Source: Ruditapes philippinarum
Lineage: Eukaryota
DNA: 64,000 nucleotides
Assembly: GCF_026571515.1 (NCBI RefSeq)
Contig: NW_026856125.1
Coordinates: 496,001-560,000, forward strand
Direction of reading: 5' to 3'
Shown here: positions 8,722 to 54,329 of the stretch, in pieces
Layout: every line of letters begins with the position of its first letter
Numbering within the stretch: position 1 is the stretch's first letter
Notes under the pieces: model-generated
Database searches by the model: none
What the model was told of the DNA's origin: nothing
What the model saw: the letters and a program-made list of their open reading frames with translations, nothing else
Translations under genes and position numbers: made by a program

Positions 8722-8861
8722 TTAGCACGGAAATATTTGCATAGAATCTCCCATGCAATCGCTCTCACGCCCCGTACTACATCTTCTTATCCCAGCACGT
8801 GTTCCAGATCCGCATGTCACAGAACACGAGCCATAAAACCATTCTGACCAGCTTGGTGTTA
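8722..8861 (-). pseudogene. Orphan duplicate of the terminal TSP1 exon
   Basis: Intact acceptor; LTPSWSEW..CSVTCG..DCMGDSMQIFPC*; a 1-nt insertion creates TAA before the last Cys; upstream EGF exons deleted (junction ~9260-9300). Confidence 0.8.
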
Positions 8862-10512: not shown

Positions 10513-10721
10513 GTTTGTTTGTTTCATTCTACGCCTATTCCCAACAGTATTTCAGTCATATAGGCGGACAGTTTCATAACCATCGTCTATGGAGAGTTAC
10601 ACCGGAATCAAACTACCTTCCTATGTGCTAAACTACCAAAGCATTTCCGGGGATCGAACCCACGCCAGAGAGGCAACTGGATAATAAGTCATCGACTCTA
10701 ACCCCTCGACCACGGAGGCGG
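10513..10721 (-). mobile_element. tRNA-derived SINE
   Basis: Minus-strand A box (GTGGTCGAGGGG) and B box (GGTTCGATCCC), (AAAC)n tail, TSD gtagg(g/c)accatt; empty site at ~41170; same family as 54656-54841. Confidence 0.8.
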
Positions 10722-18977: not shown

Positions 18978-19015
18978 TATAAAAAGAACGAATAGTCACA
19001 AGTTTTGTTTCAGTT
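18978..19015 (+). promoter_or_regulatory. Candidate core promoter of lectin copy 2 (TATA + Inr)
   Basis: TATAAAAAG at 18978 and TCAGTT initiator-like motif at 19010-19015, ~90 nt before the ATG at 19104. Confidence 0.45.
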
Positions 19016-19103
19016 AAGCGAAGCAAGTTACAGGCAAACAGTCTATGGTACTTTTTTAAAAAGATTTAATAAATATACATGTGTAACTTTAATGTGTGCC
19101 ATC

Positions 19104-19434
19104 ATGAAAAAAGCTCATCTTACCATTCTTTTTATTCATTTGATATTTTTCTGCCGGGAATTTGGATTTGCTTATGCTTTTCTGAAATTTTACAAAGACG
19201 TTGAACTGAGCGGGTATACTTGTCCGTCTGAGCACGTCCTTTTCCGTAATGGGAACGGAATAAGCTTATCGCAATGTTTATTTTTGTGTGTTGAAAGAGG
19301 TAATTGTTACGGATTTTTTCATCAAGACGCTGGACAATGTATCGGCTGTAGAGATAAGTTTCCGAAGAGCTCCAGCTATCCAACATCCAATGACACGCTT
19401 TTCTATAGAGCTCCTTTGGAATATATTATTTCAA
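19104..19434 (+). CDS. Lectin gene copy 2, exon 1: signal peptide + PAN/Apple-like domain
   Basis: MKKAHLTILFIHLIFF..AYA hydrophobic leader; TC..SQCLFLCVERGNCYGFF..QCIGC 6-Cys PAN-like pattern; A|gtaagt donor, phase 1, compatible with exon 2. Confidence 0.8.
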
Positions 19435-19526
19435 GTAAGTCTTTATTATTAGATTAAAAACATTATAATATGCAATGATTTTACCAGCAAAGATCGAGAA
19501 ATTTCTACTTACCATACAATAGTTAC

Positions 19527-22188: not shown

Positions 22189-23217
22189 TTATTATCCCGA
22201 GCCGAAAAAATTCGGCGGAGGATATAGAAATAGTCTCCGTCCGTCCGTCCGACCTTCCGTCCTTCCGTCCGTCCGTCCGTCCTTCCGTCCGACATTTTTG
22301 TCCGGAGCATATCTCTAAAAGTATTTGAGTTATCAACTTGAAACTTCATAGGTGGATAGACCTCATTGAGGAGGAGTGCAGTGCACAAGAATGATAACTC
22401 TACCTTTCATAATTTTTGAGTTATTGCCCTTTGTTATTTTCCATACCTAATTTTTCACCTGAGTGGAGCATAACTCAAAAAGTGTTTGAGATATCAACAT
22501 GAAATGACATAGGTGGATAGATCTTATTGAGGAGGAATGTTGTGCGCAAGAATGATAACTCTTCCCTATACAATTTTTGAGTTATTGCCCTTTTTTCATG
22601 CTATTTTGTCCAGAGCTTATCTCAAAAAGTATTTGAGGTATCAACTTTAAACTTCAAAGGTGGATGGATCTCATTGAGGAGAAGTGCAGTGCTTAAGAAT
22701 GATAACTCTACCCTGCATTATTTTTGAGTTATTGCCCTTTGTTATTTTTCAAAATTAATTTTTGTCCAGAGCATAACTCAAAAAGCCTTTGAGATATCAA
22801 AATGAAACTTCATAGGTGCATAGATCTCTGACTCAGGAGGTGTGCACTGCACAAGAATGATAAACTCTACCTTTTATAATTTTGAGTTATTGCCCTTTGT
22901 TCTTTTTCATACTTTAATTTTTTCTCAGAAAGTATTTGAGGTATCAACTTGAAACTTCATAGGTGGATAGATTTTAATGATGAGGGATGCAGCACACAAT
23001 AATGATAACTTACCCTGCATTATTTTTCAGTAATTGCCCTTTGTTATTTTCAGCCATCGGTATTCACATAGGTTTCAAATCTGTAATCACTATAGCCATC
23101 AGTTTTCATTACCAAAAGACCTCTTAAAATAGAATTATTCCGCTCTACTACATATACATTCTTCCAATGAGCAAACACATTCGGCGGGGGATGGCCATGT
23201 TGACATGGCTCTTGTTT
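22189..23217 (+). mobile_element. HINE/DINE-1-like element with internal ~150-160-bp tandem array
   Basis: 5' sub-TIR + inverted copy, (CCGT)n, ~5 repeats, 3' TTCGGCGGGGGAT + GCCATGTTGACATGGC hairpin + CTTGTT. Confidence 0.85.
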
Positions 23218-29818: not shown

Positions 29819-32780
29819 TACACCTTATCTCCCCTAAATAGTGAACAGTATAGATATAACTTACGCCCCTCGTTCAAATCAGTTTGCCTCGTGTTTCGAT
29901 GTTCGTTCTCTTTTGTATCATAGTCCAACGTAAAACACGTTCCCTGTTGTCACAATATGAAACCCCAGAAAAAGGTAACCAATGAACAAGCATCTGAATA
30001 TAATATTTCTATCGCTTTCCCTTTCTCTGCCTTCACAATAGTTTAACCCCCGCAAAAATGTGTCAATCAATGGGCATGCTCTGGAGTGCGGGTAACTTAT
30101 ACCTGCTCTCCAGTTAATGCACTGTGCATGTACAGGTATACGATTTCACTTTGTCACATTTTCAAAAGAAAGGTCCTCAAACTATGATACACTTACTAGG
30201 CATTAACATTCCGGCTGTTTACCTGCAGTTTTATCATTCAAATGAATACAATGTATATATTAGTCAAAGACATGAAGAACATTTTAAGTAGAAACAACTT
30301 TGTAAATTCATTACGCATTGACTAAGATGTAACTTGAAGTTGCATTTTGATAGTGGTTTAGAAGATTAACAAAATTGTTGTAAATTGTCTAAGAAGTAAA
30401 TCAAAATTTTTGAATTCTATTTATAATTCTGACACTTTAGGGATTTACCGATGACCACAATAAGGTCACAAAATATATTAAGGGAGCTAAATAATAAATA
30501 CGCGTACACATTACAAATGTATTTGAATTAATAAATTTTAAAAGTAAAACTAGTCCAATGGTTATGCGTCTATATAGTGAGANNNNNNNNNNNNNNNNNN
30601 NNNNNNNNNNNNNNNNNNNNNNNNNNNNNNNNNNNNNNNNNNNNNNNNNNNNNNNNNNNNNNNNNNNNNNNNNNNNNNNNNNNNNNNNNNNNNNNNNNNN
30701 NNNNNNNNNNNNNNNNNNNNNNNTCTGAGTATTGACATTAAAAACACTTACGGAAATAAATATATTATATTTAAACAAAATTAAAGATGAAATAACTATA
30801 CAGATATAAATATGTGAACAAAAATTCATGATAGCCCTTCTTTTTGTCATTGCTTATCAATGCACAAGTTCTAATACATAAGTGCATGAATATCTAACTT
30901 CAATTTAATCGTATATACACATTTAATATAATGTATTTATCTCCCTAATTGAAGAATGATTTTATCTAGCCTGGTTCATGCAAATTTGTGAACAATCAAA
31001 GATAGAAAGATTGTAAGTTAAATGGTCAAAAGACACTACCCTTAACTCTGTATCGAGTATAAGCATAATAAAAAAATGCAACCGTACGCGTGATACTGAT
31101 GCCATAATAACAGAAACGACTATTTTTAAAAACTCCGATGCATGAAATGACGATCCAGAGTAAGTGCATTTGTTATATTTATTTTCAAATTTTTAAACAC
31201 TTATTGAAATCTATAAACAGCAAAATTTATATTATTCAAGAGCAATTAAATTGGTTAAGACTCATGTTACCAGTTTAATACTTTTTGCATTATAAATAAG
31301 TGATGAGAACCAATGCAGGAATAGTGTAATAAAACAAAATAAAGTGATCTGGAACATTATATGGCTATTTTAGGAATGGTTTTAACTGTTTAGCAATGGT
31401 ATAAATGGTATCTTGCATGCGCCATTCTCTTTTGAGGCAATTTACTATCATATTTTTTGTATATAGGCATTTGCAAGTATTTGAAAACTGAAACAATAAT
31501 CATCTTTATAGCAGATATATAGCTTGGTACACTGTTAAACCATATTTTAACGAAATCAGCATGCATAGACTGATAAGAAAACTTTATAAGATATATAAGT
31601 CTATTTTTGTAAAATTAGTATGCCTATGATATTTGGAATTTCCAAGCGTCCTCTACTTATGTCTACCTATGTTTTACAAATAATTCAGATGTAAATAAAT
31701 CATGGATAAGTCAATTTTCTGATTAAAATCTAATTTAAAGATTATTATTGATTGTTCTAAATTGCATTCGATGTATATTGCCTCGTCTTTGCAAACTGGT
31801 TGTTGTGGAGGGGCAAATTACAATCCTTGGGGTATTTTTCTAAAAAATCTAGTAGTGAAACAACATGCACAATATCTATGGAATGGGAGAATATTTCTAT
31901 TATATTGTTGCTATGCAATTCTTAGACATTTGACCATGTGGACATAACTTATTTATTTTTGGTTAAGATAGACTAGGCAATAATACATTCAAAATATAAG
32001 TATTAAACATTTAACGTCTATATAAATTTGATGTCTCAAAGAGTGATGTTGATCTTAATCTGAAGAAGTCTTAAACTGTGTCAGATAGTGTCAAATACTC
32101 TTAATTTCATTTGATTGGCTATAAAGATACAGAGTGGAGACAAAATTGATTACAAACCGACATATTTTACATACATTCTAAGATATATATATTATATAAT
32201 TTACTTTGTCATGATATAATGAAGCATTTTTTAATCTCAATTGTAGTCAGAGTTTATCATCCCATCAAATTATCTTGATTTTTTTCCTTAAAATATAAGT
32301 AGACATATACATGTATTTATAAACAAAGTGCAATAAAAAACACAAATAGTTTTGCTTTGTGTGTATTAATATTTCACAAATAAGAAAAAAACAGAAAGAT
32401 TTTATTTGAAATCGGTAGTATCCACTTGTGTCTTACTACAAAGAACCTACAATGAAATAAAAGACGGACATGAAATAAGAAAATATGCAAAAAGGATTAA
32501 TAAATTTAGATATTGTAATCATTAAGCTACATACTTTCATTTGGTATGGTTCAATAGTACACTTCTGTCGTTTTTAAAGTATGATATTTATAATGATATA
32601 CTACTATCTGGATTTAAATAATGCGCTTGCACAGAAAGAACTTTCAGAGACGAAAATTCTATGATTGTTTCCAGAAGGTGCCAGTCTGATCTACTAAAAT
32701 ATGTTGTATTGAAAAGGAAATAAATGAAATTTATTTATAAGCATCTGATGTTTAAACTTACGTTTTGTTTTGAGTACCAA

Positions 32781-32816
32781 TCAACATTGTTGTGTTTTAC
32801 ACGGAAATATTTGCAA
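32781..32816 (-). pseudogene. Terminal TSP1 exon, detached 3' part
   Basis: LQIFPCKTQQC* continues the frame once the insertion and one TSD copy are removed; matches the paralog at 8706-8742; AATAAA ~32730. Confidence 0.85.
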
Positions 32817-32820
32817 AGAA

Positions 32821-35800
32821 GGTCTCAACCCGGTACGGAATTAGACCCAGCCCATTGTAGTCTAGAAAGTAGTTCTTTAAAATTATGAAATGGCCCAATT
32901 TAAGTCATCTCTAGTTAGATTGTTCATAATTAAAGTGTATTTATTGCATGTGTGTAGTTTTTGTGTGTTATATGATGACTTTAAAAGTTGTTTTTTTGTG
33001 TATTCTCCAGGAACTCATTTGTTGGTGGAAGGATTAAAGATGTACTACCCACCAGCTGTCAGGAGTTTTTAAAGTGGTGAATTTAAACAGTGTTACAACA
33101 GAATGAAGATTTCTGAAAAAAGTAGATGGCTAACCTATTATATTTTGGGCATCATTTGACTTAGATAGTGTTAATGTTTAAAGTTGAAGACAGTATATAA
33201 TTCATCAAGAACATTGGAATCCAGAATTAAACCTCAAATTTGACTGATTTACTATAGAACTAATAGTACGAAAATTCACCGGGCCGAGTCCAAGATAAGA
33301 AATGTCAAAAATGGGAACTGGTTGATGGATATGGATGAAACTTTGCATCAGTGTTGTGTTCATGAATAGAAGTCAGGAAAAAAAGGATTACTGACAGCTA
33401 GGTTTGAAAATTTAAATTTTATTTCAAATTTTAAAATTTGACATTTTAAAATTGGGACATATGTTGTTGTTGTTATCTCCCTTCAAATGTAGATGTCTGC
33501 TACTGTGTCAGTAAGCAGGGAGAAGGGTACAGAGCTTTTGCATGAAAGATTAACCACATTTTATTGAATTAAAACTGTAAAAATAAATTTAGAATTAAAA
33601 AATGAAATTTAAATTTTGTAAAAAGCAGTTTATAAATTGATAAATTTTATTTTTGCACCCTGTGTTAAGCAATATGCTATAAATCTAGCTTATTTTTTAA
33701 GATTTATATAGAAAATGATAATTTTTAGAGAAATGCATCTTAAATTATGGATAATTATGCATTGAAGGAATTGGGAGTGTGTGGTTTCAGATTGGTTACA
33801 TTGGTAAAAAAAGTGATTGGCAAGCTCATTCCAGAGCTCTCTAAGGGGCCCAAAGATTCACCGGCCATGGGATTTGAAACAAGTACCATAGTAGCCTATT
33901 GCTCATAATGGACCACACATTATATGTTTGATGTTTCAGCAAAGGATTGATGCTGTAGTAATCAGTATGTAAATATTCACTATTGTCCTGTATTTAAATG
34001 AAGAAGAACTAACAATTGAACAGGACAAATGTGATTTATATTTGGAAATATAGGCATTTTCAGTGTAGTGAAACTTGATGTTTTGCTGTGTTGCAGAATG
34101 TATTTGCTAGTAAATAATACACATAAAAGATTTTCTAGTCATTAAACAGTGTATTTTATGGATAATTGGCTCATTTAGAATAACACAGTTGATATAATTG
34201 TTGTTGTTGTTGTTGTTGTAGCTGCTACAGCAGTTAAATTAGGTTAGGTTTATAATGTTCTAAACTGCTATTTTCATGCAGGCATGCATTTTTCAGAACA
34301 CAATATTTATATATGCTCTCCTGTGTGAATTTAAAATTAGCCATTTATTAATTTAAGACATTATTTTCTTTCTTTTTCAGATATTAGAATTTTACAGCAT
34401 AAATGCCCCTTATAATTTTCTTAAGCATTCCTTAGTGTTGCATATTTTTTAGACCATGCAGTTACCAAAGCCTGGGTTTGAGTATATGACCTTACCTTAT
34501 CCTGGTAAAGATCTATAGAAGGACTCCTTCACTCTGTTTGGCAGGGCAGCTTTGTTTCAGGCACATTGAAGAAGGTAATAACTTTTGTCTAGTTTGAAAC
34601 TTACTATTGGCGGTAGCGCCTACCCAATGCTCGGGAATATTTGGTCAAGTTATTTTTTGAATGTATTGGTCAGAGAAAATTTCTATAATTCTGACTATAT
34701 TAAGACTTCTCAATGATTTTAAAGTGGGACAGTATGTGTGTCATCTTTTAAAGCCTTATTTGTGGGAGAGTTGGCTAATCTTACTTTGTCAGAAGACAAT
34801 AGCCCATGGTGATATGGTAACCTCTTTGCTAACCTTTAAGATTACCTCTGTTTGTCTTTTATTGATATCTTAAGCAAACAATGTAGGGTGTGTATGTTGG
34901 TTCTTCTTTACTTTATTTACCATGGTATATAGGTAAAAATCATAATCAGTAAGTTTTTATTACAATATTGAAGGAAAAAAGATTTGAAAAAAGCACATTT
35001 AATTGTGATTACTTGTATTTTAACGCCAAAAATTTCAATGCTCTCATTTAAAGAAATTGAGTTCTATTACAATTTTTAAGCAATAAGTTCTTATTCTTTC
35101 AATAGAAGTAACTGTATGACATTAGCGGTAACATTTAAACTTTATTCAAAGAAAATCCATTTACAGAATCAAAAGATATTGACGAATTTGTAATATAAAT
35201 TTTGCGTAAATTCTATTGCCGAGCCTGACTTTTCGCATGAAGGTTCATATTTAAGAAATTGTACCACATTAATGTAATTTGTTAGAGACATGTCAAACCT
35301 ATATGACTGTATTTGTATAACACTAAATTACTAGGAAATGAGTATAAAGTTTGGCTTAACTTAAATTTTGGATTCATTTAGGTCTCAACCCGGTACGGAA
35401 TTAGACCCAGCCCATTGTAGTCTAGAAAGTAGTTCTTTAAATTATGAAATGGCCCAATTTAAGTCATCTCTAGTTAGATTGTTCATAATTAAAGTGTATT
35501 TATTGCATGTGTGTAGTTTTTGTGTGTTATATGATGACTTTAAAAAGTTGTTTTTTGTGTATTCTCCAGGAACTCATTTGTTGGTGGAAGGATTAAAGAT
35601 GTACTACCCACCAGCTGTCAGGAGTTTTTAAAGTGGTGAATTTAAACAGTGTTACAACAGAATGAAGATTTCTGAAAAAAGTAGATGGCTAACCTATTAT
35701 ATTTTGGGCATCATTTGACTTAGATAGTGTTAATGTTTAAAGTTGAAGACAGTATATAATTCATCAAGAACATTGGAATCCAGAATTAAACCTCAAATTT

Positions 35801-35850
35801 GACTGATTTACTATAGAACTAATAGTACGAAAATTCACCGGGCCGAGTCC
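32821..35850. mobile_element. Composite-type non-autonomous DNA element with long terminal direct repeats (KolobokP-like)
   Basis: Direct repeats 32821-33291 and 35381-35850 differ only in homopolymer lengths as far as I can see; ends GGTCTCAACCCGGT / ACCGGGCCGAGTCC are imperfect inverted repeats; TSD AGAA; empty site in the paralog (gcatagaatctccc ~8740). Confidence 0.85.
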
Positions 35851-35969
35851 AGAATATCCCGTGCAATCGCTCTCACGCCCCGTACTACATCTTCTTATCC
35901 CAGCACGTGTTCCAGATCCGCATGTCACAGAACACGAGCCATAAAACCATTCTGACCATCTTGGTGTTA
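35851..35969 (-). CDS. Terminal TSP1 exon, 5' part (interrupted by the element at 32821-35850)
   Basis: LTPRWSEWFYGSCSVTCGSGTRAGIRRCSTGRESDCTGYS; WSxW and CSVTCG motifs; reads into the element to a stop at 35764. Confidence 0.88.
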
Positions 35970-36942
35970 CTTTCAAAGAGAAAAAGCATTGAATATTAAA
36001 AATGAGATCACGTATATTAATCGCGTATATTAAGAAGTTGAACTGCCTGAAACCATATAATTTTAAATTCTTGCAGAAATCTGGTCAAACACTTATACTG
36101 ATTGTGTATTGTCATATTAAACATACACGTATTTGTTTAAAAAAGTGAACTAATTCTATATATTATGAATTTGTTTTCTAGGTATCTTATCACTTCGGGT
36201 TATTGAAACTTATGTAATTCTACGTGATATATTTTTGACATTTCTGTATGTTTTAATCTCAGTTAAGTGTATATCCACTTGTGTCTAAGTACAAAGAACC
36301 TAAAATAAAAATAAAAGACGGACATGAAATAAAAGAAAATTTAAAAAAGGAATAATAAATTCAGATATTGTACCAATATATCTTTTGAAAAAAATATTGT
36401 CTGAACTTTGAAAAGATGATTTTTCCGAAATGCTGATATGAAATAAATATGACAGTAAATTGCATGATAGGCAAAAGTGACCAAAAAAACCATTTTTAAT
36501 CAGTTTTAAAAAACGAACACCCTATTAAATTTTCCCAAGATATTCATAAGATAAAGGGGATAATTAATTTTAATATTGTTTTAATTTTATAAAAAAATTT
36601 TTAAGATAAGATCTTACCCTTTGTTTTACACGAATAAACAATACGTAAGACATTACTGATGTATTTTATGCAAAACTCTTTCATGACAGCTATAAGGTCA
36701 AAGTTCACTTGGATTTCTGATCTAAGTTCAAATATATTCAATAAGATTTGCCCTGTCATTCTAAAAACAATATAATAAAGTTTATAATCTGGATGAATGT
36801 TTAATTCATACACCATTTGTACACAACCACGTATTTAATTCAAAGAATAACTTGAACTTTACATAAATTATTTAATCTTTTACTTACACCCGGCTTTTTA
36901 TTTTGTAAACAGAAAAAGGTAAATGATAAAAGAAAATCTTAC

Positions 36943-37056
36943 AAGAACAAGTTTCGCCATAGAAGCCTTTTGGGCATACACAGCTGAAATATGGTGACGT
37001 GTTATTTGAAACGCAATGCCCGCCGTTTTGACATGGTTTTGTCTCACACACAGTTT
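36943..37056 (-). CDS. EGF exon
   Basis: 114 nt; QTVCETKPCQNGGHCVSNNTSPYFSCVCPKGFYGETCS|gtaag. Confidence 0.9.
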
Positions 37057-37111
37057 CTGGATAACGATGTATAAATATACATTGATTACGAAAGCACTCA
37101 CAAGGTAATGT

Positions 37112-37112
<1 letters not shown>

Positions 37113-37166
<54 letters not shown>

Positions 37167-37178
37167 GAATAATAATAA
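37113..37178. repeat. (AAT)n microsatellite
   Basis: ~20 near-perfect units. Confidence 0.95.
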
Positions 37179-37451
37179 AACATTACATAATAAGATATCA
37201 GAATTAACAGTCGTGGAACCTAAAAAGGTTTAGATAGTAAAACATTATGATTCCAGATGTCTTTATAGCCTAATTAAGACCGGCTTACACACGAACGTCG
37301 TATTGCCATTAGATATGAATAATTTTTAGATTTAAGAGAAGTTTAATTTTGCTAAGTAAAATTAGAATTTCGGTTTTGAAAACCATTTTTTCATTGAATA
37401 TGAGATTTTAATGTAAAAAAAAACAACCAAGATGTTAATAATTGTTTTTAC

Positions 37452-37562
37452 GTTCACAATGTTGTCCAGCATACCCCGCCGTGCAGTTACAATGGTAAAA
37501 GGGGAAGGTATCCTGGTGATGACATGTTCCATGTGGTCCACATTGCTTGACATGACACGCAT
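37452..37562 (-). CDS. EGF exon
   Basis: 111 nt, phase 1-1; DACHVKQCGPHGTCHHQDTFPFYHCNCTAGYAGQHCE. Confidence 0.9.
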
Positions 37563-38557
37563 CTAATATGATAAATAATTGTATGATAAATCTGACAATT
37601 GACAGGGTTGAATTGATAGTTCAAATGCGATAATATGTGCAAAAACAAAGCCAGGATGACCCTTATTCGCTCCCCTGATTGTTTATCACTCTAAATATAT
37701 AATTCGGCGCTTCCCGCCTGGTTGGATCCTTTCCTAATAGAACTACCCGAGTAAAACACTCTCCAGATCAACAAAATTATATACCTATAATCCTGTTAAT
37801 AATCGTGTTATATACATGAACTCATAAATAAAAATTAAACATCTCGATTGAAAATCCTTTAGCTGATGTTTAAAATATTTGTTACTTTCAATAATATGAA
37901 TGAAATTAATTTCAGACATATTTTTTGTATCTTAGATAATAATGCTGAAATGTTATGAAAATCGAAAATATTATATTAAATTGTTCATGCTTATATTTTA
38001 AATGGAAAGCGTAATAATACAAAAAGTGCACTTAGATGTTTCCTCTATTTCATACTTAAAGATTGTTTTTATAGTTTATGTACTATATTTCTGACATTAA
38101 GGTAAAATACATGTATTAAGATAACGTGACCTGCCTGATTATGTACTGTACAATCACGTGCAAGATTGCAAGGGATGTTATGGTTAATTCATGTTATGGT
38201 AAATTATGTAAAGTACCTAATTCACAAGTATCACCGGTCCAGCCAAGTTTACATTGACACGTGTAGTGACCTGGTGTATTCACGCATTGGCCTCCGTTTT
38301 GACATGGAGTACTTATTTTACACTCGTCAACGTCTAAAAGGAATAAAATAAGAACCGATTTTTCAAAAATGGTCGATTTAGGTCACTAACATTAAATTTT
38401 AAGTCAATCTACATCTATTCAATTTTTATTATTTATTATGGCTGCAAGTTTCTGTTGAAAACGTGCGTTTCCGTTATGGGATAAACATAAATAAGAAAAC
38501 TTCATTGCAACTCAACATCTGTGTAAGTGAATAAAAAAACAAACAAAATTTTTATTA

Positions 38558-40611
38558 CGAGGTATGATATAAAAGGTCTCGGCCCGATATACTTCTAGCC
38601 ACTACACTGACATTTACACACGATACGTCGATACAGATATCTTATTGAAGATTATTGCCAGAGTTACACGCGGTTTTACACAAATTAAGAAACATAAAAC
38701 ACACTTTTATCAGTAGAGGGGTGTGTCATTAAAACCAAATGGAGAGAGTTGAAATCAGAGCCTTCATTAAGTACTCCTATAAGAAAAGGGATGTCCCCCA
38801 AGGTCATGAAGACTTCATGGATACTATGGGAAGGAGTCCCTTTCCTACAGCACTGTGAAAAAAATAGGCTGCTGAATTTCAGAGGGGCAGAGAGAGCATT
38901 GGAAATGATAAAAAGACCAAAAGAGGCCACCAATGATGAAACTGTCGAAGCTGTGCACGATCTGGTCATGTGCGACCGGAGGCGAGACCTGCGAAGCAAA
39001 CCTAGGGAAGTGGATATAAGCTTTGGTTCAGTTCAGACAATTCTGACTGAGTCAATGGCATGTCAAAGGTTTTCGCTAGATAGGTCCCAGACAGTTGACT
39101 GACGACCAGAAACAGACCAGGCTTGGCATTTCAAGATATCTTTTGTCCTGCTACGAGGTTAAAATCTGATTTTATCTACTGGATCATAACTCAGGATGAA
39201 ACATGGGCAAGAGGGTCATACCATGCACGCGCATCCTCAACATTCTGATACAGCGACCACTTTTTCAACAAGTATTTTGAACAAAAACGAGTCATGTAAA
39301 GCAATCAGAATAGATTTGAATTTAATTTCTTTTGCATAGAAGATGTCCATACTTGTAGTTTTAATATTCCAAATGCCTTGACACAAGTGTTTCCTTTCTT
39401 GTCAATATTTCGCGTTGAATGCGATTTTGATTCCGGATACTCCGTACACCCGGAGTTGAAATGTTACAGAAATTGAACTGAAAGTTTCACACAACTGGAA
39501 GTGAGTTTATTGTAGAATCTATTTCACAAATATATTTTCAATCTTTGTTATTGTTCCTTTGTACGAACAATGTCTTAAAACGAACCTTTTTCAGGAAATA
39601 GACATTATGATAGTGCGTACACTCTTAAAAAATCAAGATACTGCGAACACATTTATATATTATTGATTCTGCCTACACTTTCTTCGAAGCAGTCTTAGAT
39701 CATAATAGGATCAAATGGATAACACTGGCGAACAAAAAATAAAAAAAGTGAATTAAAATAAAAAAAGGATTCAAATCCTGTGTTAAGTGCTTCCTTAAAA
39801 TGTTTAAACTGTACATCCTAAAAAATGATTTAAGTTTAATATTTTTCATTAAATTGTTTACTCATTTATGTAAAACTCTAAACTGATAATTTAAAATAAC
39901 TAACTTTTTATAGTCAAATTTATAGTTCATTGAAAGAAATAGATGCATGTCGATTATATCACGGATTCTTCTCCAGACAACATGAAGGCCAATCAACATG
40001 GTCCTTACAAATGTGACATTTGAATAGGCATTTTTTTCTGAAACATGGGTTTCATCACTTCGATCCAGAATCCAAAAAACAGAGCATGCAGTGGAAGCAC
40101 CCGGATCACCCCTCCAAAGAAATTCAACAGGGTGCCATCAGCAGGGAAGATGATGGCTTCAATTATTTTGGATAGTCAGGAGAAAATCATTATTGACTAT
40201 CTTCAGCAGGTCGTTCAATGAACGATACTTAATATGCAAACGTAAAAAATCGATCGTAAAAGGAGGAGCAAACTGACTCAAGGTGTTCAGCTCCTGCACG
40301 ACAATGCGATGGCTGCTGCCACTGACTGCGGCTTAGAAATTCTTCCCCATCCCCCATGTTCTACAGACATTGCTTCCTCTGACTTCTACCTGTTTACGAA
40401 ATTGAAAACCAAGCTTCGTTGTCGACGTTTTGGGAGAATGAAGGTTTCATGGAGGCGGCCAATGAGTACTTTGAGAACCAAACTAGAGAGTTCTATTTTG
40501 AAGGGTTAAACAAGTTGGAGTACAGGTGGGCAGAGTGCATTGATGTAGAGGGCGATTATATTAAAAAGTAACCGGAAGTACATCGGGCTAAGATTTTTTT
40601 GATAATCTTCG
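38558..40611 (+). mobile_element. Degenerate mariner (DD34D-type) with a nested ~0.83-kb insertion
   Basis: TA-CGAGG..CTTCG-TA ends; TQDETW, DPESKKQSMQW, LLHDN, HPPCSTDIASSDFYLF; insertion 39208-40038 between duplicated tgaaacatggg. Confidence 0.88.
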
Positions 40612-40879
40612 TATCTGCTCAAAACTGGTATAAAACTTAATTAGGTAGTTCACGGTTGTGGTTTATTTGAATATATGTAATTAAAATCATTGACCAGCCT
40701 ACCTATTTCACAATTATTTCCATACCAACCGGAACAATAACATGAATAGCCGTGCTGGTTACTGACACAAAGTCCACCATTTTTGCACGGACTGCTTGAA
40801 CAGTGGTCAACCTGTGTTGTTACCTCTGTATTATGACATAAGAAGTTATTTATACAGTATAAATCTATATTTAAGTCGA

Positions 40880-42123
40880 GATTAAGAAATATTTTAATTA
40901 AACTTCATTGAAATGTTTCCGCTATAAGAAGTCGTGTCACGCACATGAACCAGGTCTCTAAGTCACAGGTCAGGGTCACTCTTAGAGGTCATTCAAAATG
41001 TTTGTCGGGAGCAAAACTTCTACATTCATAGAGGGATTTCAATATAACTTTGGACTAATGTTCACCATAGTGAGGCGGAGTGTCGCGTACTAAATTCGGA
41101 TCCTTCCACCAGGGTAAACGTCACATATAGAAGTCTAAGATGGGTCAAATAAAAATATAAAGATGTATATAGGGACCATACAGTCATCACTTATTGCGTG
41201 ATTGTAAAAGAAATGTTCATTCTCATGACTGAAGTTGTGACACATGCAATTCAGTCAATATATGCAAGGTCAAGGCCAGTAAAGATGATAACAAATCCAG
41301 ATTGTGTCTAGAGCATATCTCCTACATGTATGTATTTTAACATCATGAGAGGTATTGCTCAAAAAATGATTTAGGTATATAGATAAAAACAAAGTAACAC
41401 TTAGAGCTAATTGTTCAACAGCTTGTCCGGAGCAAAATATCTACATTCAAAGGGGAATTTTGATATACTAGTAACTTAGGACAAATATTTACCATTGTAA
41501 GGCGGAGTGCCGGGCGCGAAATCCGGTCATAGCGATCAAAGTCAAGGTCACACATAGAGGTCAAAGTTCAGATAAAAATATGAAAACTGTGTAAGGACCA
41601 TTCAGTCATTATTAATGGATTGAAACACAAATGACAAATATCATGACAATGGCTTGGACACATGTAATTTATGTTAAAATTTGCAAATTCAAGGTCATTC
41701 GAGATGATTAAATAGTCCGATATTGTCCAATGCATACCTTCTACATATATGGAGGAATGTTATTTTACATTGTTGACCGTAATATGAGGCAGTGCCTTAC
41801 TTATTAACCAGGTCTCTAGGTCAAGAGGCAATGTGACTGTAAGGTCTTGTTTAAAAAAACAAAAAAACATAACGCTTGTCCCGAGCAAACATCTACATAT
41901 ATTGAGGGGATTTTAATTTTTACTTGCCACACTATTTCAAAATTGTCTCGCATAGAATTCAGGTGCCTGCAACCAAGGTCAAGGTCAAACATAGAGCTAA
42001 AATGTTCGATAAAAATACGAAAATATGTATAGGGATCCACTTGCTTGCCACACTTCTTATTGCCCATATCTACACATAAAGCTTTTGTGATGGGCGTTAT
42101 TTTAGTGACAATGCCATCCTTGT
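40880..42123 (+). repeat. Old tandem-repeat (HINE-like) element; paralog ~10220-11845
   Basis: Recurrent 'ggtcaaggtcac' and 'gtccggagca' units; 3' ..CCTTGTT end; limits approximate. Confidence 0.5.
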
Positions 42124-42725
42124 TGTATTTCGCATATTTATTATGGTCTTCAGTGATTAACGATTATCAAATAACAAGACTATGTTAAATGTTCTGTATA
42201 TGATTTGTAACCATATCAATTATTCAACACAGTTGATGTCAGTTTGCATATTTGAATGATTGCGTCATTTAATCATGAATATAAACGATCGTTCTATTAA
42301 CATATTACTTTTTAAATTTGGCACTAATCATGTAGAACAAAAATGCTTTGGAATTAGTATTTCTACACAAGTCATGTAAATTTGATAAATTAAAAACTGA
42401 CTGTTTTATTTGAATTGAATTATTGTAACATTTTCTTCCCTTTAACTTTCCTAGAAATAATAGACATTTAGAGTATTTGTGATTTTCCAGACCAAAGTCA
42501 TAGCATTACACACAATGCTTATTAAAGTAAATTCACGTGTCTCCGAATATACGGATGTACGGCAAAAATAAAAATATTAAAATGTTCTTTTTCACAAAAT
42601 AATTATATGCAATGAAATACTTTTTTTGTGTTCTTAAAATGCTACACATGCAACATATTATATTGAATAAAATCATGAATGAATTCCTTGTTATACAGTT
42701 AAAATGTTTTGAAATAGAAAGATAC

Positions 42726-42843
42726 TTGTACAGAAATGTCCCGTCCAGCCATTTGCGCCATTACATTTGTAGTCACCTAATAAATTTATACACGTTGCGT
42801 TGTTTTGACATAATAGTCCCCTTTTATGAGTTATCTTTATCAT
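42726..42843 (-). pseudogene. Decayed long-type EGF pseudo-exon
   Basis: 118 nt (not 3n); ..HKRGLLCQNNATCINLLGDYKCNGANGWTGHFCT; Cys1 lost, Cys5->Gly; resembles the 44620 exon. Confidence 0.7.
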
Positions 42844-42986
42844 CTTAAGCGTACTTTACAATTTTAGTGCCTTTATTGGTGTCCGTTAGAATTTCAATAT
42901 TTTTAGATATTTTGTTTACATTATTGGAGTTCCTTCATAATAAGTTTGTTTTAAATTCTAAAAGTTTTATAAATTAGGCATCTGAC

Positions 42987-43100
42987 CTGTCTGACAAAAC
43001 GCACCAGTCCAACCGGACCCACATTTGCAATTATAACCGCCATACGTGTTGCTACAGGCTGCATGATTTAAACAAGGGTTGTCCAAGCATTCATCCACAT
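42987..43100 (-). CDS. Calcium-binding EGF exon
   Basis: 114 nt; DVDECLDNPCLNHAACSNTYGGYNCKCGSGWTGAFCQT. Confidence 0.92.
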
Positions 43101-44619
43101 CTGAAAACATCAATAATAGTTATCACTCATCGTAAAAAAAATATAAAAAAGAAAAGATAAGTTAAATGTATGTACTTATTTTCAAGCTAAATCCTTGAAA
43201 GAAAGGAGAAATGTGGCTGTGTGTTTTCCACTTATCATCTGAATGTGACATGCAGCTGCTGACATGTGGGCAAAATTTTAACTCTTATTATATCGCGGTG
43301 ATCAGATAAATAAAAAGACAATAAATCGCTCGGGGCTAGAATATCATCTGGAGCCACGGGGAATCTTTGCATGACCAGGATTATGACAAATCTCATAAAT
43401 AATTCATATGTCACATAAGCTCTTTTATGTAATTTCTTATGATAAAATTAACTTTAACTTGAAATAAGAATGCAGTAGGCGCGAAAGTGTGTAAACAAAA
43501 TCTGTTATCTTGACCCTAGTGAACCATAGTTAGATAGTCTACCTATATCGATTTTTTTATCAGTCAATAAATCAGGGCAGCATGAACTGTGTAAAAATCT
43601 AAATGCATCAGAGTAGGAACCTTGATCCAAGTAACTTCTTCTTTCAAAATGAAAGGAACCCACGAGATATTAACCTACGAAATAACTATGAAAGACATAA
43701 GTTATTAAATTAAAGCTGTATAAGCAAAAGTGTATTAAAATGTTATCAAGTATCAGTGACTTTTATCGTAGTGTCCGCTTACTCCTCACAAAGTAAAAGC
43801 ACCATGACCTTGATCCAAGTGATCCTATCTACACCTATATTAATAAGACTACCAAAAAAAAAATTCAACATTAATATGAAAGAACACTGTCAATAAATAA
43901 AGACTATTTTAGCAGAAGATGAAACTTGCATGATGAAGAGTTTTACAGGGAGACTATTCAAAATTCAAGCAATGTATCATTATGTTTCTTTGACAATGTA
44001 CCCACTCTCTCTAGAAAAACTTGAAACACGTTTCAAAACAATTTCCAGCCGAGCATAATAATTATGTATCAAATTGGGAGATAAATAAAAAAGTATGTAA
44101 AGAGGAATATTGCACTTCTTCTCACTAGTCTTTATAATTATTTGGAGTTTCAATGACTTTATAGTTTTTAGGCAATGCACTTTCTCTAAAACACTACATT
44201 TTCTCTAACTGGTCGAAGATTCTGTCAAATTACAACCATATGTATTAAGTTATTGTCTAAACAAGAGGATGATGGAAACACGGACAATGCTCCGAAAATA
44301 TGATTTCCCTTTCGAAAACATGTAAATACGACGCAAGGGTCACATATATGTTGCAAAAATATCAGAAAGTTTACGAAGCTTTACACGCTAACTGAAGCGC
44401 TACCTATCATTTAAATTTGCTTATAAAATATATAAAATGGAGTCAGAATTGTGACATCTATCCGAAAATTTTTTTTTTGTTTCCGCCAAATTGTTCGAGA
44501 CATGTTACAAATATCGGAAATAAGCAAATTATGATAAATGTTAGGCCGTTGTAAGTATTGAGAATATATATTAGTCAAAGATGATTATAAAAACTGATTT
44601 AAACAAACCGAGTACATAC

Positions 44620-44748
44620 CTTCCGAGCAAAACCGTCCTGTCCATCCTTCACTACAGTTACATTTAAAGGAACCATTTTCGTTTATACAAGAAGCCCCAT
44701 TGCGACACAGAAACCCTCTAGAGTTAAATATCGCACACTCGTCTAAAT
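44620..44748 (-). CDS. Calcium-binding EGF exon (long type)
   Basis: 129 nt; DLDECAIFNSRGFLCRNGASCINENGSFKCNCSEGWTGRFCSE. Confidence 0.92.
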
Positions 44749-45516
44749 CTGGTTGATAAAAAGAATATTTAACAACACAACGCATCTTACATCGTATCTG
44801 GTACTGTAGTATAAGAAACGATTACACAATCATGTGTCACTCTTACAGCAAATAATATTTTTAGAAAATACCTTTGTGTTAATGTTTTAAACATCAAATA
44901 AGAGAATGCAAATATACACACGATAATGCATTGATATACGGTTTTAAGCCTATCAATTAGTCTTAACAGAAAACACTTATTGTAAATAATGCATGTACAA
45001 TTATGTAACATCGATTCTCATTGGTCGCCTAAAATATATACAATCATATAAGATAAACTCAACTTGCTTATGCACCAATATAATAAGCTAGATATACAAG
45101 TTTAAATAACATTGTTAGCAGAATATGTAGCTGTATATGTGTAGCATAACATCGGTCACATTTGCCTCGGGTTATATTTATATCTCAACACACTTTTTGT
45201 AGCAAAAATTTGTTGGTACTGGTAACTGTTTCAAAATATACATTATTTTATAAATGAATAAGTTTCCTATTTAGAATTAACTTGCTGAATTACATAGACT
45301 TTTCCAGCCTGTTTTTGCTTGTAACCGCATATTTCCAACTTTCAGACGTCAATATGAAAATTAACAGTAAACAATTTTTTTCAGACCACACGGAATTTAC
45401 TGGGTTTCCTTACAAATACTTGTCGGTTCCTGCAGGTTATAGTTTAATAACAACCTAACGTAAATGCATTTATCTTTAAGCGTTAAAAATAGGAGCAAGA
45501 GCAAAGATAGGGATAC

Positions 45517-45629
45517 CAGTATCACACATTTGCTCTGTCCAATGTGACGGATAATTACAGGTTTACCAGTCATGTTTGTTCCAACAGGTCCGATTGTTCG
45601 AGCACAGGTTTTGTAACATTCGTCAAAAT
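45517..45629 (-). pseudogene. Decayed cbEGF pseudo-exon
   Basis: 113 nt (frameshift after DFDEC), TAA at the conserved Tyr, Cys5->Tyr; still ends WTEQMCDT|gt. Confidence 0.75.
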
Positions 45630-45722
45630 CTTTAAAAAGTAGGATTGCCCCACTTTTCTTCAGAAAGATGAAGTTTAACTGATTATTATAGATTCAGAGG
45701 CAGAAAAAAGAAATAAAAGTAC

Positions 45723-45836
45723 CTATGTCACAGTTAATTCCGGTCCATCCTGATGTGCAGGAGCAGTTATATCTCCCAGGCAAGTTGGAACACGTGCCAT
45801 TATTCTTACATGGATTTGTTAAGCACTCATCTGCAT
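45723..45836 (-). CDS. Calcium-binding EGF exon (tandem duplicate of 46899-47012)
   Basis: 114 nt; [38 protein letters not shown]; upstream intron also duplicated. Confidence 0.88.
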
Positions 45837-46898
45837 CTATATTCAATCGTATAAAATAGATTTTGTGTCATGAACTTGTTCGGCTGTTAAACAGTTTTTT
45901 TCATAGATTAAAATTTGAATCTGTCAATAAGCCTTGTGTGATCTTGGTAACACTTAACATGACAATTAATGTTTAAAACTCACAGTTTTCTTGAAAAAAA
46001 AAATTTCCTCATATGTATATGGAATACATATATTTCATATAATATATTAAGTGTTGCATACAACATCAACAGTAATTCTTACTTCTTTATTTTCTTCATG
46101 TAACATCAAACTGCAAAATTTTTTGCAGGTATTCACTTATAACTTTATACAAGATCGATATTTTGATCCAAGAACCATAAACTAATTTTAGGGAATATAG
46201 AAATTAAAACTTTTCGTTGAAATTAAGCATGCGATATCAATTTTCAAAACAACATAATTTATTTACTTGAAACTTAATACATGTCGGCTGAATAATAATC
46301 GTAGGTTACTGTCAATGGCCCCATCTGACGTAAATTTATGCTGAATTAAAGCGCTTTGGGAAGTCAGCAGAAAAAAAGTCTGGTTGTAATATTGATCTTT
46401 CAGAAGGAAAACCTACCAGATGTATTCTGTGACATTTAATTCATGCTGTCGGAAATCAATTCATTTTTTGCATATATTTTGAATGAAATAAGGCCCTTTG
46501 CGAACTTGACAAATAGCCAGGACTCATGACAATGTCTTGAATGGTGAACTCCAATTATGATATCATCCTGTCCACTTGAATGATGTTTCAAATAATTACC
46601 TTGAGTAATTTTGCAGATTGAAGTTACACGAAAAACTTCAACCAATAGTTTTCTGTTGATTTTGCAACATCACAAATGGTCATGAATATAGAATTATTTT
46701 ACAGTTTCTTCCTATTATGCCCTTAAGTAAGTGTGTAAATTAACAAGCAAATTTGAAAATACATTTAAAATTATACCAAAGTGTAATGCCAAAGCCAACG
46801 CCTTCGCCAGGATAAGTAGGATTGTCCAACTATTTTTCGAAAAATCGAGATTAACTTAATAATTATAGATTTGCAGCAGCATAAACCAATGAAAGTAC

Positions 46899-47012
46899 CT
46901 GTGTCACAGTTACTTCCTGTCCATCCAGTTGAGCATGCGCAGTTATATCCCCCATGCAAGTTGGAACACGTGCCATTATTCTTACACGGATTTGTTAAGC
47001 ACTCATCTACAT
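46899..47012 (-). CDS. Calcium-binding EGF exon
   Basis: 114 nt; [38 protein letters not shown]. Confidence 0.92.
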
Positions 47013-47237
47013 CTATACTCAATCAAATACAAGAGATTTTGGATGATGAAAATTTGTTTAGCTGTAAACCAAAATTTCGTTTTTGTAATTTAAAATCTGA
47101 ATCTGTCAGTAAACTTTTAGTGATCTTGGTAGCAATTGACAAGACAATATTTTTTTTTAAAATTACTGTTTTTTTTGTAAAAAAGAATTTCCTCATCTTA
47201 AGGAATTCACAATATATAGGCTTTTATGAACTCAAAC

Positions 47238-47288
47238 CTTTTAAACAGATAGGACCTGTCCATGTGTCAGTGCACGAACAGCTATACC
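47238..47288 (-). pseudogene. Half-EGF exon remnant (5' half replaced by a hAT fragment)
   Basis: GYSCSCTDTWTGPICLK|gtttga; only Cys4-6 remain; abuts the transposase remnant at ~47290. Confidence 0.7.
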
Positions 47289-47290
47289 CT

Positions 47291-48700
47291 ATGCAGAACA
47301 AGAAAACCCAATTGAATCATTATGTGAATGCCCAAACGACTGAGGAATCCCAGCAAAATTTTAATGCTTTGAAATAAAGACAATCCACTCACATCGGGTT
47401 GCACAAACTTCAGATTTTCGGAATTTGAAAGGCATGTTACATCATATCAGCATAAAACTGCACTGAAGTCACAATCTCTTAGGAGTAAAATAAACAGACA
47501 CTCTTAAGCACTTCTTGAATCTAAAACTGAAGGTGCTATATGTGCCATGCGATTTATCTACTGGTAAGCTAAAGAACAGTTGCCAACTTCATAGTATAAG
47601 TTCTTTCTTAAATTACAAAAAATACAGGGATGTTCATTTCCTGATGAATTGTAAGTAAAATATCAATGGGAAGCATGTTTAAAAATGTGCAGTTTTTCAA
47701 ATCTATCAATTATGTAATATTTGTAAGTATGACTAGGAACAATGTCAACTTATACATTTATTAATTTAATTCGATACATAGTTGATGTTTAAAATTCAGG
47801 ATTCAGTAGTTTCAGTTTTAGGAATATTTAAAAGTGTTGAACCTAATAAAGTTAATCGCTTATTTATTATTAAACAGAATAACGATTATATATAAATTTA
47901 TGATGTTTAAGGTTTGCACTAGTACATCTTATACGTCTCATATAATACACAAATATACGTCTCATATCAAGTTTCCTTCAGGAAGAGACATATATTAGTC
48001 TGAGATCTAGTCAATTTATTTCTATTCTAGTATTTGAGACCTGTGACATTTCAATTACTAAAACACTGAAAGAACTGTTAACACCTACTTTTGATGTAAA
48101 AACTCATCATATATCTAATATTACCAATGTTAATGGGACATCAAAGACTATTTACACAGCTGTAAATCAAACTCTGGCTTCTCCCAATATCACATTATTG
48201 TTGCTGTTGAATCAGATGGTGCATGACTGGTCATAAAAATGGGGTTGTTGCATTATAATATCTTATGATTCCCCATATGTATTTGTTGTACATTGATCTG
48301 CTCATAGATTAGCTTTATGCTCTAGTCAAGCTACCGAAAAGGTACCCTACATAATAATACAACAGCAAATTTTATCTGATGTAATTTATTATTTTAAAAG
48401 ACCAGCAGTCAGGAGGGAAGGACTGAAATTTATTCAAACAATTTCGGAAGATCCTTGATAACAATATAAAGAGTTAAATAGTGTAGTGTCAGATGATGGT
48501 TTTCGAATTAAGCATTCGTATGACATTAAAGTAGCTTCTCGTAACAGGATATCTGGAGAAAGGCTGAATGGATTAATGAAAATATCACTGGGACCAGCTG
48601 TGGAACATTTTGACTTTAATAAAGCAATGTGCAAGTGAAAGTCTAACCATACAAACAATTAGAATTTGTCCAATAAGGCAGACATAATTATAGCTTATAC
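47291..48700 (+). mobile_element. hAT (ZNF862-like) transposase remnant
   Basis: ESDGA..TGHKNGV, VH*SAHRLALCSSQA, RNRISGERLNGLMKISLGP; many stops; termini not found. Confidence 0.75.
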
Positions 48701-49068
48701 TTGAATATACTGAAAAATATGGAAAAACAAACAAAACAAGATTAACAAGAAGGGAGACATTTAATGAACGCAACCCCAACACGACCTACCACCGGCAAGG
48801 AGCCCAGCAAGACAGCAAACAAATACAAGCCAGGGCACAAGGACCTGTTAAGTGCCATGACATTCTTCCCCTTTGTCTTTTTTGTTGATAGACAAATTCT
48901 TCTTTCGATAAAACCATTTCTTTGAAACTTTGAAAATCTTTTATAATAAAGATTTCGTTCAACCATCATTTATTTATGTTAATGCGTTTAAAAGAAAAGT
49001 GTTTGAACGAAACATTATGTTTGCAGATATGGAAATAAAAGAAAAAAATGCCACTACTTAGTGATTAC

Positions 49069-49185
49069 CAGTCTGACATTGTGTTCCTTTCCATCCACTG
49101 AGACACGTGCAAGTAAAATGGCCTGGAGTGTTTACACACGTGGCCCCGTTCTGACAAAATCTGTACCTTGTGCATTCATCTATAT
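49069..49185 (-). CDS. Calcium-binding EGF exon
   Basis: 117 nt; DIDECTRYRFCQNGATCVNTPGHFTCTCLSGWKGTQCQT. Confidence 0.92.
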
Positions 49186-49636
49186 CTAAATGAAAAGGGT
49201 CAATGTAATATCCAAATACATTTTTGTTTTCATTATAACAAACAGTTATAACGATGAAACTCCTTACTTACTTATATATGGTGACAGATGAGCTGATTAA
49301 GGATAACATATTATATACAACCCGTTTATGTTAATACAGTTGTGTACGAGAATTTGAAAAAGCAATTAATGAAAGCAATTGTATAATGTTCACAAATAAA
49401 AAACTCGCTATCCTCAGTCCTAATGTTTTGTATTTTTACGTTGATGATACTATAGTGAAATGTAATAAAGTTTAAATAAACCGTTAATGTAATAATCAAT
49501 TTGGCATCTTAAGCATGTCTTCAGGCACATTCATTGAATAATTCACTTTAAAATTCAATAAATTAGATATTCCATGAGAGACAGTGCAAACTTGTTATAT
49601 AATTTGATTATTTAAAGTACGAGTAAATCACATTAC

Positions 49637-49750
49637 CGAGGTCACAATTTTTTCCCTCCCAACCACTCTGACATGAACAAACATAGGTTCCGTCTGTATT
49701 TGTGCACTGTCCGTTGTGATTACATGGTTGTTGAGTGCATTCATTTATAT
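49637..49750 (-). CDS. Calcium-binding EGF exon
   Basis: 114 nt, phase 1-1; DINECTQQPCNHNGQCTNTDGTYVCSCQSGWEGKNCDL. Confidence 0.92.
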
Positions 49751-50729
49751 CTAAAATGGCATCGAAATAAGGAATGACGTTTGACATTTCTAAGCTTAAA
49801 TTTATTCGAAGTACAATCTTAATCGTTTACAAATTCCATTTTAATCAGGTGTTTTTATATCTAATAAGTTAATGTTTCCAATTTTTTGTCACTTTAAATG
49901 CTTTTTTATTAAAATTAAATTGTGCATTTATTTAGATCTAAAACGTTCTACAAATTGTGGACATTCATTCAATTCATACATTATGATCTAATATGGTTGT
50001 TGAAAACATTTAATATATACTATAATAAATGAAATACAGACTACATTTTGTTTATTGCATCATTTATTTATAAAAGTCGCATTTTGTTCTACAGTCAATT
50101 ATACTACAAGTTTGTCTGCTTTGACTTCTATATCTGAATACAATTTTTTTTAAATGCACTGATTGAAATCACCTGTGAATGAAATGATAAACATACCACA
50201 AGCAGACTCACAGACAGATTCAGTAGAAAGCAGATATATAATGCAAAAAATGATTTATAAAGGATAACTATTATACAGTTGTTAGAAAAAACAAAACATT
50301 TAAAGCCCATTATTCCCCAGAAAAATCATTTTATTTCTGAAAAAAACCTATTCATTTTGGTACATTGTAATCTTATTATTTCTTCCAAAAAGTAATTTAT
50401 TCGCCATATAGATGAACAATATTTTCTCCTTTGTTCTACTGACAAGTGGTATATTTGAAGTGAATTAATAAGTATTTTGTATGGAAGTTAAATACTACTT
50501 ATTTTACATTTTGTTACCTTTACAACATAACTGCACGCTCAGCACTACTTTCTGCAGTTGGTTAACATCTAACACGCTCTTTATTCTTTACTTAAACATG
50601 AAACAAGTGCTTAACATTTCTAACAAATTAAAGCAATGTGGATTTCGAAGGCATAATGTGCCTTAAACTATTAATCTTTAAAGTATATAGTTACGCAAGT
50701 CTTCTTTGTTTGAAAATATATAATGATAC

Positions 50730-50849
50730 CCGTCTCACATTGGTTGCCCATCCAGCCTTGGTTACAGGCGCAACTAGCTACGCCATTGGTTACTGAACAT
50801 GTTCCATGTACGCAATTCAAATTTGAACACGGACTTTGTGGTTGAACCC
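50730..50849 (-). CDS. EGF exon 1
   Basis: phase 1-1; GVQPQSPCSNLNCVHGTCSVTNGVASCACNQGWMGNQCET. Confidence 0.88.
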
Positions 50850-51500
50850 CTAAAAGCCATTGTGAAAAACTAGTATATATACATGTATTTATTTGTATTG
50901 AAAAAAAATGTTCCAGAAAAAAATATTTTGTTGCTATTTAAGTAGGGGTTTATTTGTTAAGCAATGATTTCGTGCATTTGGCATTTGCTAATCAGACAAT
51001 TGATACCATACTTATTTTACACACGGATTTTGGAAGTATTCATTTTTGAAATATAAACACTTATTTTCGTAGCAGATATATAGCTTCTACACTTAAAAAC
51101 AGTTGTAATCAAATGTTTCTGTTATGTACCACAGATAAATTTTTGATATTGATAATGCTCCGGAAAAAATACCGGTATTATGCTACTATTTTAAGTAGGG
51201 CAGTTAAGCGATGCTTACGTGAATGTCCATTCACTTTAAATAAAATATACAATCATATTTCTTTCTAAGATATATTTTGGAATTATTCTTTTATGTATTC
51301 AACCAACAATTTGTAGACAAGAGAAAGTAGATTTAGCTTTATACACATTTTAATGTTTAAAAATTGCACTTTTATCAAATAAAGCATACACATAAATTTT
51401 AATAGCCTTCTAATATACTTATACTGAGAATGTGCAATTCAAATATCTACATGCTGACCTAACAAGACGAATATCTTAATAAAAACCTGATTCATATATT

Positions 51501-54247: not shown

Positions 54248-54329
54248 TAACACAACAAATGAAGACATAATTTATTTATATATTTATCATGGCATTAACA
54301 GTAATACTTTTTCTATATGATAAATATTC

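Follow-up and report, generated by a model that had tools for sequence, protein, structure and literature searches.

A putative non-autonomous KolobokP transposon inserted in a TSP1 exon of Ruditapes philippinarum

Results and Discussion

The DNA analysed here is a 64,000-nt window of the Ruditapes philippinarum genome (contig NW_026856125.1, positions 496,001-560,000), and all positions below are numbered along this whole window. It contains a 3,030-bp mobile element on the minus strand, which reads as a full-length monomer of a non-autonomous KolobokP family of DNA transposons, related to KolobokP-3_MeMe of Mercenaria mercenaria, that would have moved as one unit; we place the probability of this interpretation at roughly 0.95. 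The sequence-only reading of the same DNA had suggested a non-autonomous KolobokP-like element moving as one unit on the basis of its layout, and this suggestion is now backed by sequence homology as well. The element lies inside a coding exon with a thrombospondin type 1 (TSP1) domain, which that reading had missed.

Architecture and insertion site of the element

The architecture of the element was observed directly. It is composed of a pair of long terminal direct repeats (LTDRs) and an internal region (INT) in the order LTDR-INT-LTDR. The left copy of a target site duplication (TSD), AGAA (32817-32820), is followed by a 471-bp LTDR (32821-33291, minus strand), which corresponds to the 3' LTDR in the KolobokP consensus orientation, by the INT of 2,089 bp (33292-35380, minus strand), by a 470-bp LTDR (35381-35850, minus strand), which corresponds to the 5' LTDR in the same orientation, and by the right copy of AGAA (35851-35854). 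Global alignment of the two repeats gave 469 matches, no substitutions, and three single-base gaps, all of which fall within homopolymer runs (32879/35438, 32982/35542, and 32991/35550), so the claim that the repeats differ only in such runs holds; the substitution rate between them is 0/469, with a 95% upper bound of 0.64%. The rest of the window contains no further copy of the repeat, whether in a second element or as a solo LTDR, and no autonomous partner, and the core (the INT) has no real match elsewhere in it, the one hit being a 32-bp AT-rich stretch (E = 0.03).

Both repeats carry the start and end motifs that had been read on them, and each has GG..CC ends (5'-RR..YY-3' type) and a terminal inverted repeat (TIR), in which the first 14 bases agree at 11 positions with the last 14 in reverse complement. 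Such an 11/14 match was reached by 0.0002 of 200,000 random 471-bp draws from the window. At spans of 10, 16, 20, and 22 bases, the corresponding random fractions were 0.008, 0.001, 0.012, and 0.010, and these weaker values indicate that the TIR is short and imperfect.

The TSD and its empty site were likewise observed directly. AGAA forms a 4-bp TSD around the whole unit, present on the outer sides only, while the inner flanks AAGA and TTTA, correctly described before as mismatching, are merely the ends of the INT. In a segmental duplicate of the locus (7100-9175 vs 31161-36273, 85-91% identity in blastn), AGAA is present once, at 8743-8746, and the sequences on its two sides align through this single copy (671 matches, 69 substitutions, and 71 gap columns on the left; 393 matches, 30 substitutions, and 10 gap columns on the right), which bears out the empty site that had been noted at about 8740. 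One TSD around the whole unit together with an empty site indicates that the element was inserted as a monomer after the duplication.

A patchwork duplication at a larger scale was also seen in the window (63-11844 vs 19987-41929, mostly 73-91% identical). The three N gaps of the window (4031-4179, 6898-7063, and 30583-30723), none of which lies in or near the element, are all located in duplicated blocks, two of them at roughly corresponding positions in the two copies.

An assembly artefact, in which one repeat was written twice and the homopolymer differences are read errors, deserves mention, since the only differences between the repeats are homopolymer indels of the kind typical of long-read error, in a window that contains N gaps and a large segmental duplication. 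We regard it as very improbable, because the order of repeat, core, and repeat and the junctions between them reproduce a known element of another species, and the outer TSD is exact, the empty site is present, and the element is free of N. The three homopolymer indels themselves may be errors, in which case the repeats would be fully identical.

A non-coding core between direct repeats that are almost identical, with a single TSD on the outside, would also be expected of a non-autonomous long terminal repeat (LTR) retrotransposon resembling a large retrotransposon derivative (LARD) or a terminal-repeat retrotransposon in miniature (TRIM), whose repeats are reset by reverse transcription. However, the ends are GG..CC, TG..CA ends are absent from the element, and neither a primer-binding site (PBS)-like start nor a polypurine tract (PPT) was seen by eye in the 20 bases inside each repeat on both strands. 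As regards gag/pol, no frame in the core exceeds 70 codons; the Pfam scan covered 33690-34171 only, and the remainder is excluded via the KolobokP homology. The earlier statement that these features are lacking is thus supported, and with termini and core homologous to a DNA transposon family, an LTR element is hardly credible here. In addition, Rfam returned no match on 32700-36000 at E <= 1, ARAGORN predicted no tRNA in the window, and the terminal 22-mer of the element had no exact match in the bacterial and archaeal genome collection.

Homology to the KolobokP lineage

According to Kojima and Bao 2022 (PMC9587614), KolobokP comprises 228 described families, found in clams and other marine animals. 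Their LTDRs measure around 450 or 660 bp and have short TIRs and RR..YY ends, and their 3-5-bp TSDs show no strong target preference. The non-autonomous families in Table S1 of that paper range from 1,421 to 3,784 bp, several of them being near 3.0 kb, and 4-bp TSDs other than TTAA are on record for families of such a size. The present element agrees with non-autonomous KolobokP in its LTDR length (450-480 class), RR..YY ends with TIR, TSD, size, and lack of coding capacity, and homology to the lineage is seen in identity counts and colinear anchors, all of the comparisons with published families in this text being made by eye. The non-TTAA site that had been noted for the element is no anomaly, given the absence of a strong target preference and the varied TSDs of KolobokP-3_MeMe, including TGAA, GTAC, ATCT, ATTT, GAAT, TTTA, and CTAT (PMC9587614).

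KolobokP-3_MeMe shares with the element an LTDR of 470 bp, GG..CC ends, a short TIR (15 bp in that family, 14 bp here), and a 4-bp non-specific TSD (Table S1, PMC9587614). The LTDR sequences are homologous, with 34 of the first 50 nt and 44 of the last 60 nt being identical, as are 48 of the first 60 nt of the INT; across the repeat/core junction, 92 of 120 nt are identical without gaps. The internal region of this family, KolobokP-3_MeMe-I, opens with TAAA, whose reverse complement is found here as the inner flank TTTA. A 10-mer from the core start has two occurrences in the consensus file of 1.06 million characters, one of them in KolobokP-3_MeMe-I at the corresponding offset and the other in a coding stretch that is unrelated.

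The homology continues colinearly through the core, where the spacing of anchors is preserved along the whole length relative to KolobokP-3_MeMe-I (3,684 bp). In both, INT position 156 is the first base of a common 7-mer, a block within the transposase ORF close to its start lies at about position 645 here and at 661 in KolobokP-3_MeMe-I, and an AAC-rich tract lies 0.91-0.93 kb from the INT 3' end here and about 0.89 kb from it in KolobokP-3_MeMe-I. In both elements, the 5' region is followed by the transposase position, the AAC tract, the nuclease position on the opposite strand, and the 3' region, in this order. They differ in that KolobokP-3_MeMe is autonomous, with 4,624 bp and an intact transposase open reading frame (ORF) of ~2.0 kb, whereas the element has 3,030 bp and both of its genes are eroded. 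With roughly 70-80% identity in the best blocks, the element is, judged by these blocks, of a different family from KolobokP-3_MeMe.

Bacterial composite transposons consist of two insertion sequence (IS) copies around cargo. The element resembles them in that two modules bounded by TIRs lie in direct orientation and move as one unit, and it had been proposed, as one option, to be a new cargo-carrying composite. In such a composite, two solo TIR modules would have captured host DNA and moved jointly. The TIR on each repeat, together with a core that lacks an ORF and whose plus strand has a skew in G and T like that of introns, would accord with such an origin. In contrast to the bacterial composites, no transposase is present in the flanking modules, the core is not cargo, and the host is an animal with spliced exons. 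Moreover, both ends of the core and several anchors inside it have homologous counterparts in KolobokP-3_MeMe-I, with order and spacing preserved, the junction of repeat and core is shared with that family, and the inner flanks are INT ends and not residual TSDs. The cargo proposal was given up on this end-to-end homology, and we consider a new composite highly unlikely. Captured host DNA is possibly present in the poorly anchored 34240-34760 only, and even then it would be a small insert and not a new composite.

Several non-autonomous KolobokP families are similar to the element in size, LTDR length, TSD length, and monomer structure, such as KolobokP-4N1_CorFlu (2,637 bp with a 473-bp LTDR), KolobokP-N1_CGi (3,053/455 bp), KolobokP-N4_PatPel (2,994/465 bp), and KolobokP-3N1_DrPo (3,449/474 bp). 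Where compared, which was for the termini only, such non-autonomous families are less similar to the element than KolobokP-3_MeMe. Similar terminal and subterminal motifs were found, again among the termini compared, in KolobokP-3, -4, and -5_GarTel of Gari tellinella (466-468-bp LTDR), and KolobokP-3_GarTel has a 13-nt block in common with the element at the same offset of the 5' end; unlike the element, these families are of autonomous length (4.6-5.6 kb). An exact search of the KolobokP supplements (PMC9587614) with 12 short terminal and subterminal motifs gave two hits, both in internal sequences of other families and none at a terminus; this search is blind across line breaks, and one of two later motifs scored zero though visible by eye. 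The result suggests that the family of the element is undescribed in these supplements, and the element probably represents an undescribed non-autonomous KolobokP family, as judged from exact motifs in the supplements of PMC9587614. It would add one non-autonomous family to a lineage of 228, which changes little.

Internal region and its putative gene remnants

The lack of coding capacity in the element was observed directly. Stretches without a stop reach at most 70 codons in the six frames of the core, with a core-wide stop density of 7.1%; the longest frame inside a repeat has 63 codons, and a frame with its start in the core has 88. An intact ORF for a DDD/E transposase, which an autonomous KolobokP would carry on the direct strand, was not found in the core. 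The earlier statement that the core has no transposase is therefore right for an intact ORF, and it fails in so far as eroded transposase ends and a remnant of a His-Me finger nuclease gene appear to be present. On its homology, the core is best described as a KolobokP internal region without about 1.6 kb of the transposase ORF, and not as cargo; by this comparison, it is an internal-deletion derivative of an autonomous KolobokP.

Following the minus strand, the INT would begin with a 5' non-coding part (34760-35380), in which further blocks in common with KolobokP-3_MeMe-I follow its first 60 nt up to about position 650. Next come two putative, eroded stubs of the DDD/E transposase ORF, from its N- and C-terminal ends (34390-34760, minus strand, boundaries approximate), placed by short anchors, namely an 11-nt identical block near 34575 and an ENYKGHL-like end near 34420, and by the length difference. 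The position of the ~2.0-kb ORF in KolobokP-3_MeMe is occupied here by about 0.37 kb that lack the catalytic core. The INT is shorter by 1,595 nt (3,684 - 2,089), in agreement with the missing part of that ORF. The transposase stubs are plausible, and the weakest of the homology calls.

An (AAC/TTG)n tract (34198-34219) lies between the two former genes and has its counterpart in the AAC-rich tract of KolobokP-3_MeMe-I. On its opposite strand, KolobokP-3_MeMe-I shows by eye an ORF of about 135 codons, which we take to carry a motif of the His-Me type (SHLC..C.N..HL). Comparison with this strand placed an eroded His-Me finger nuclease gene with stops and frameshifts at 33740-34090 (plus strand, boundaries approximate), where scattered fragments are seen over more than one frame when stops are read through. 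Its three frames contain 5 (in the best frame), 6, and 8 stops in 84 codons, compared with the core-wide density given above, so that stops in the former genes are about as frequent as in random sequence. A nuclease remnant at ~33740-34090 is likely, as far as homology of this kind can tell. The 3' non-coding end of the INT (33292-33520, minus strand, inner boundary approximate) shares several short blocks with the last ~230 nt of KolobokP-3_MeMe-I.

Several observations weigh against the KolobokP interpretation or parts of it. The identities to published families are hand counts over ungapped, selected blocks, with no computed alignment or E-value, and the transposase stubs are supported by very short anchors. 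The comparison of LTDR termini covered 119 of about 228 entries, among which KolobokP-3_MeMe appears to be the closest; it is perhaps not the closest known, and a closer family may exist. For the nuclease remnant, Pfam searches of the three stop-read-through frames of 33690-34171 matched 0, 0, and 1 family, none of them a nuclease; Pfam and PDB sequence searches with an alignment of the remnant (A1) gave no match. The only protein retrieved for the remnant is an unnamed one of 71 aa (P0004), and a search of the ESM Atlas with P0004 gave no usable hit. The single Pfam family matched in 33690-34171 was ATP11 (E = 0.14), which was dismissed as weak.

P0004 was the sole match (E = 2.2e-10) in a HMMER search of 1.84 billion representatives and the only protein obtained among 65 candidates in a word-indexed protein search with A1. 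It is 55% identical over 71 columns to a stop-riddled core frame of the window (33825-34016, plus strand). P0004 is a diverged relative of the core in another record and does not identify the remnant; it probably stems from an erroneous gene prediction on an eroded KolobokP copy related to this one.

Interruption of a host TSP1 exon

The interruption of a host exon by the element was also observed directly. Coding sequence is present on the minus strand of the right flank, where an exon starts at 35969 after an AG acceptor and encodes a TSP1 domain. Its 5' part (35851-35969, minus strand), apparently belonging to the last coding exon of an EGF-repeat gene, matches Pfam TSP_1 at positions 3-36 of 49 (E = 1.1e-4), and its severed 3' end (32781-32816, minus strand) consists of 11 codons and a stop, including a Cys that continues the TSP1 match. 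The uninterrupted paralogous exon, which contains the empty site (8722-8861, minus strand), is identical to the 5' part of the interrupted exon at 116 of 119 nt and matches Pfam TSP_1 at positions 3-44 of 49 (E = 2e-6). By the insertion, the 11 codons and the stop (32816-32781) are removed, and the frame runs 28 codons into the LTDR to a stop at about 35764.

At least 12 EGF-like exon candidates, nine found by motif scan and three by tblastn, were located upstream on the minus strand (36887-50937), and all three of the candidate frames scanned with Pfam match EGF. The EGF exons and the TSP1 exon probably form one expressed gene for an extracellular EGF-repeat protein, as predicted from their sequences. 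The insertion would mean that KolobokP can change the C-terminus of a host protein, here an EGF-repeat/TSP1 extracellular protein. The element is ordinary except for landing in a last exon and replacing the end of a protein.

The duplicate lacks the part at 36.5-40 kb, and its one recognisable EGF exon (9997-10239) is broken, which indicates that the more complete gene copy is the one that was hit. With the same orientation as the interrupted exon and a position 27 kb downstream of it, the intact paralogous TSP1 exon might be used as an alternative last exon.

Transposition, age, and homogenisation of the repeats

By analogy with the Kolobok superfamily, a DDD/E transposase would be provided in trans, from an autonomous relative located elsewhere in the genome; it would recognise the two outermost TIRs and make a 4-bp staggered cut, leaving AGAA on both sides. 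The target would have been the last coding exon of the EGF-repeat/TSP1 gene, whose last 11 codons would be replaced by 28 LTDR-derived codons, and the insertion would be later than the local segmental duplication. The two repeats would then be kept identical by recombination or re-templating.

The element had been called very young. As for the insertion, the perfect TSD, the occurrence after the duplication, and the otherwise intact host exon suggest that it is recent, and this part of the claim is plausible. However, a DNA transposon cannot be dated by the identity of its repeats, and the core of the element is old. The absence of substitutions over 469 positions beside eroded genes indicates that the repeats were homogenised long after the decay of the core genes began.

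Unequal crossover or a circle with one LTDR has been proposed for KolobokP repeats (PMC9587614). It has also been proposed that the nuclease takes part in crossover between them, a role which a later paper (PMC13565253) still describes as unconfirmed. Identical repeats around a long-eroded core favour repeated homogenisation, which the unequal-crossover and single-LTDR-circle models fit equally. KolobokP repeats might even be re-templated from one copy in each transposition cycle via a single-LTDR circle, in the way that an LTR retrotransposon resets its repeats. This idea is tentative and on balance doubtful, as occasional gene conversion or unequal crossover explains a single locus equally well. 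If it were true, the family would be a natural and clean test case for the circle model, which is unproven (PMC9587614). An eroded core between identical repeats is the pattern by which a genome-wide survey of copies could separate re-templating in each cycle from sporadic conversion.

Other features of the window

A C-type lectin domain exon was found at 4689-4958 (plus strand; Pfam Lectin_C, E = 7.2e-5), on the strand opposite to the EGF gene and inside a duplicated block. In a 153-codon frame at 18996-19457 (plus strand), which has no Pfam match, a Cys-rich segment comes after a hydrophobic stretch, as in an exon of a secreted protein. Broken frames at 12542-14893 (minus strand) presumably derive from a reverse transcriptase of a long interspersed nuclear element (LINE), for which Pfam gave no support in the one frame scanned, and fragments at 9509-9890, 38685-40571, and 57218-57842 resemble a mariner-type transposase. 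A Pfam HTH_32 match (E = 8.6e-5) was obtained at 57218-57634. Finally, a fold-back structure at 52570-54253, with arms of about 630 bp that are 88% complementary and a middle of ~320 bp, resembles a miniature inverted-repeat transposable element (MITE) or a foldback element, and degenerate arrays are present at 22294-23074 and 54341-55678, with units of about 147-161 bp and 168 bp, respectively.

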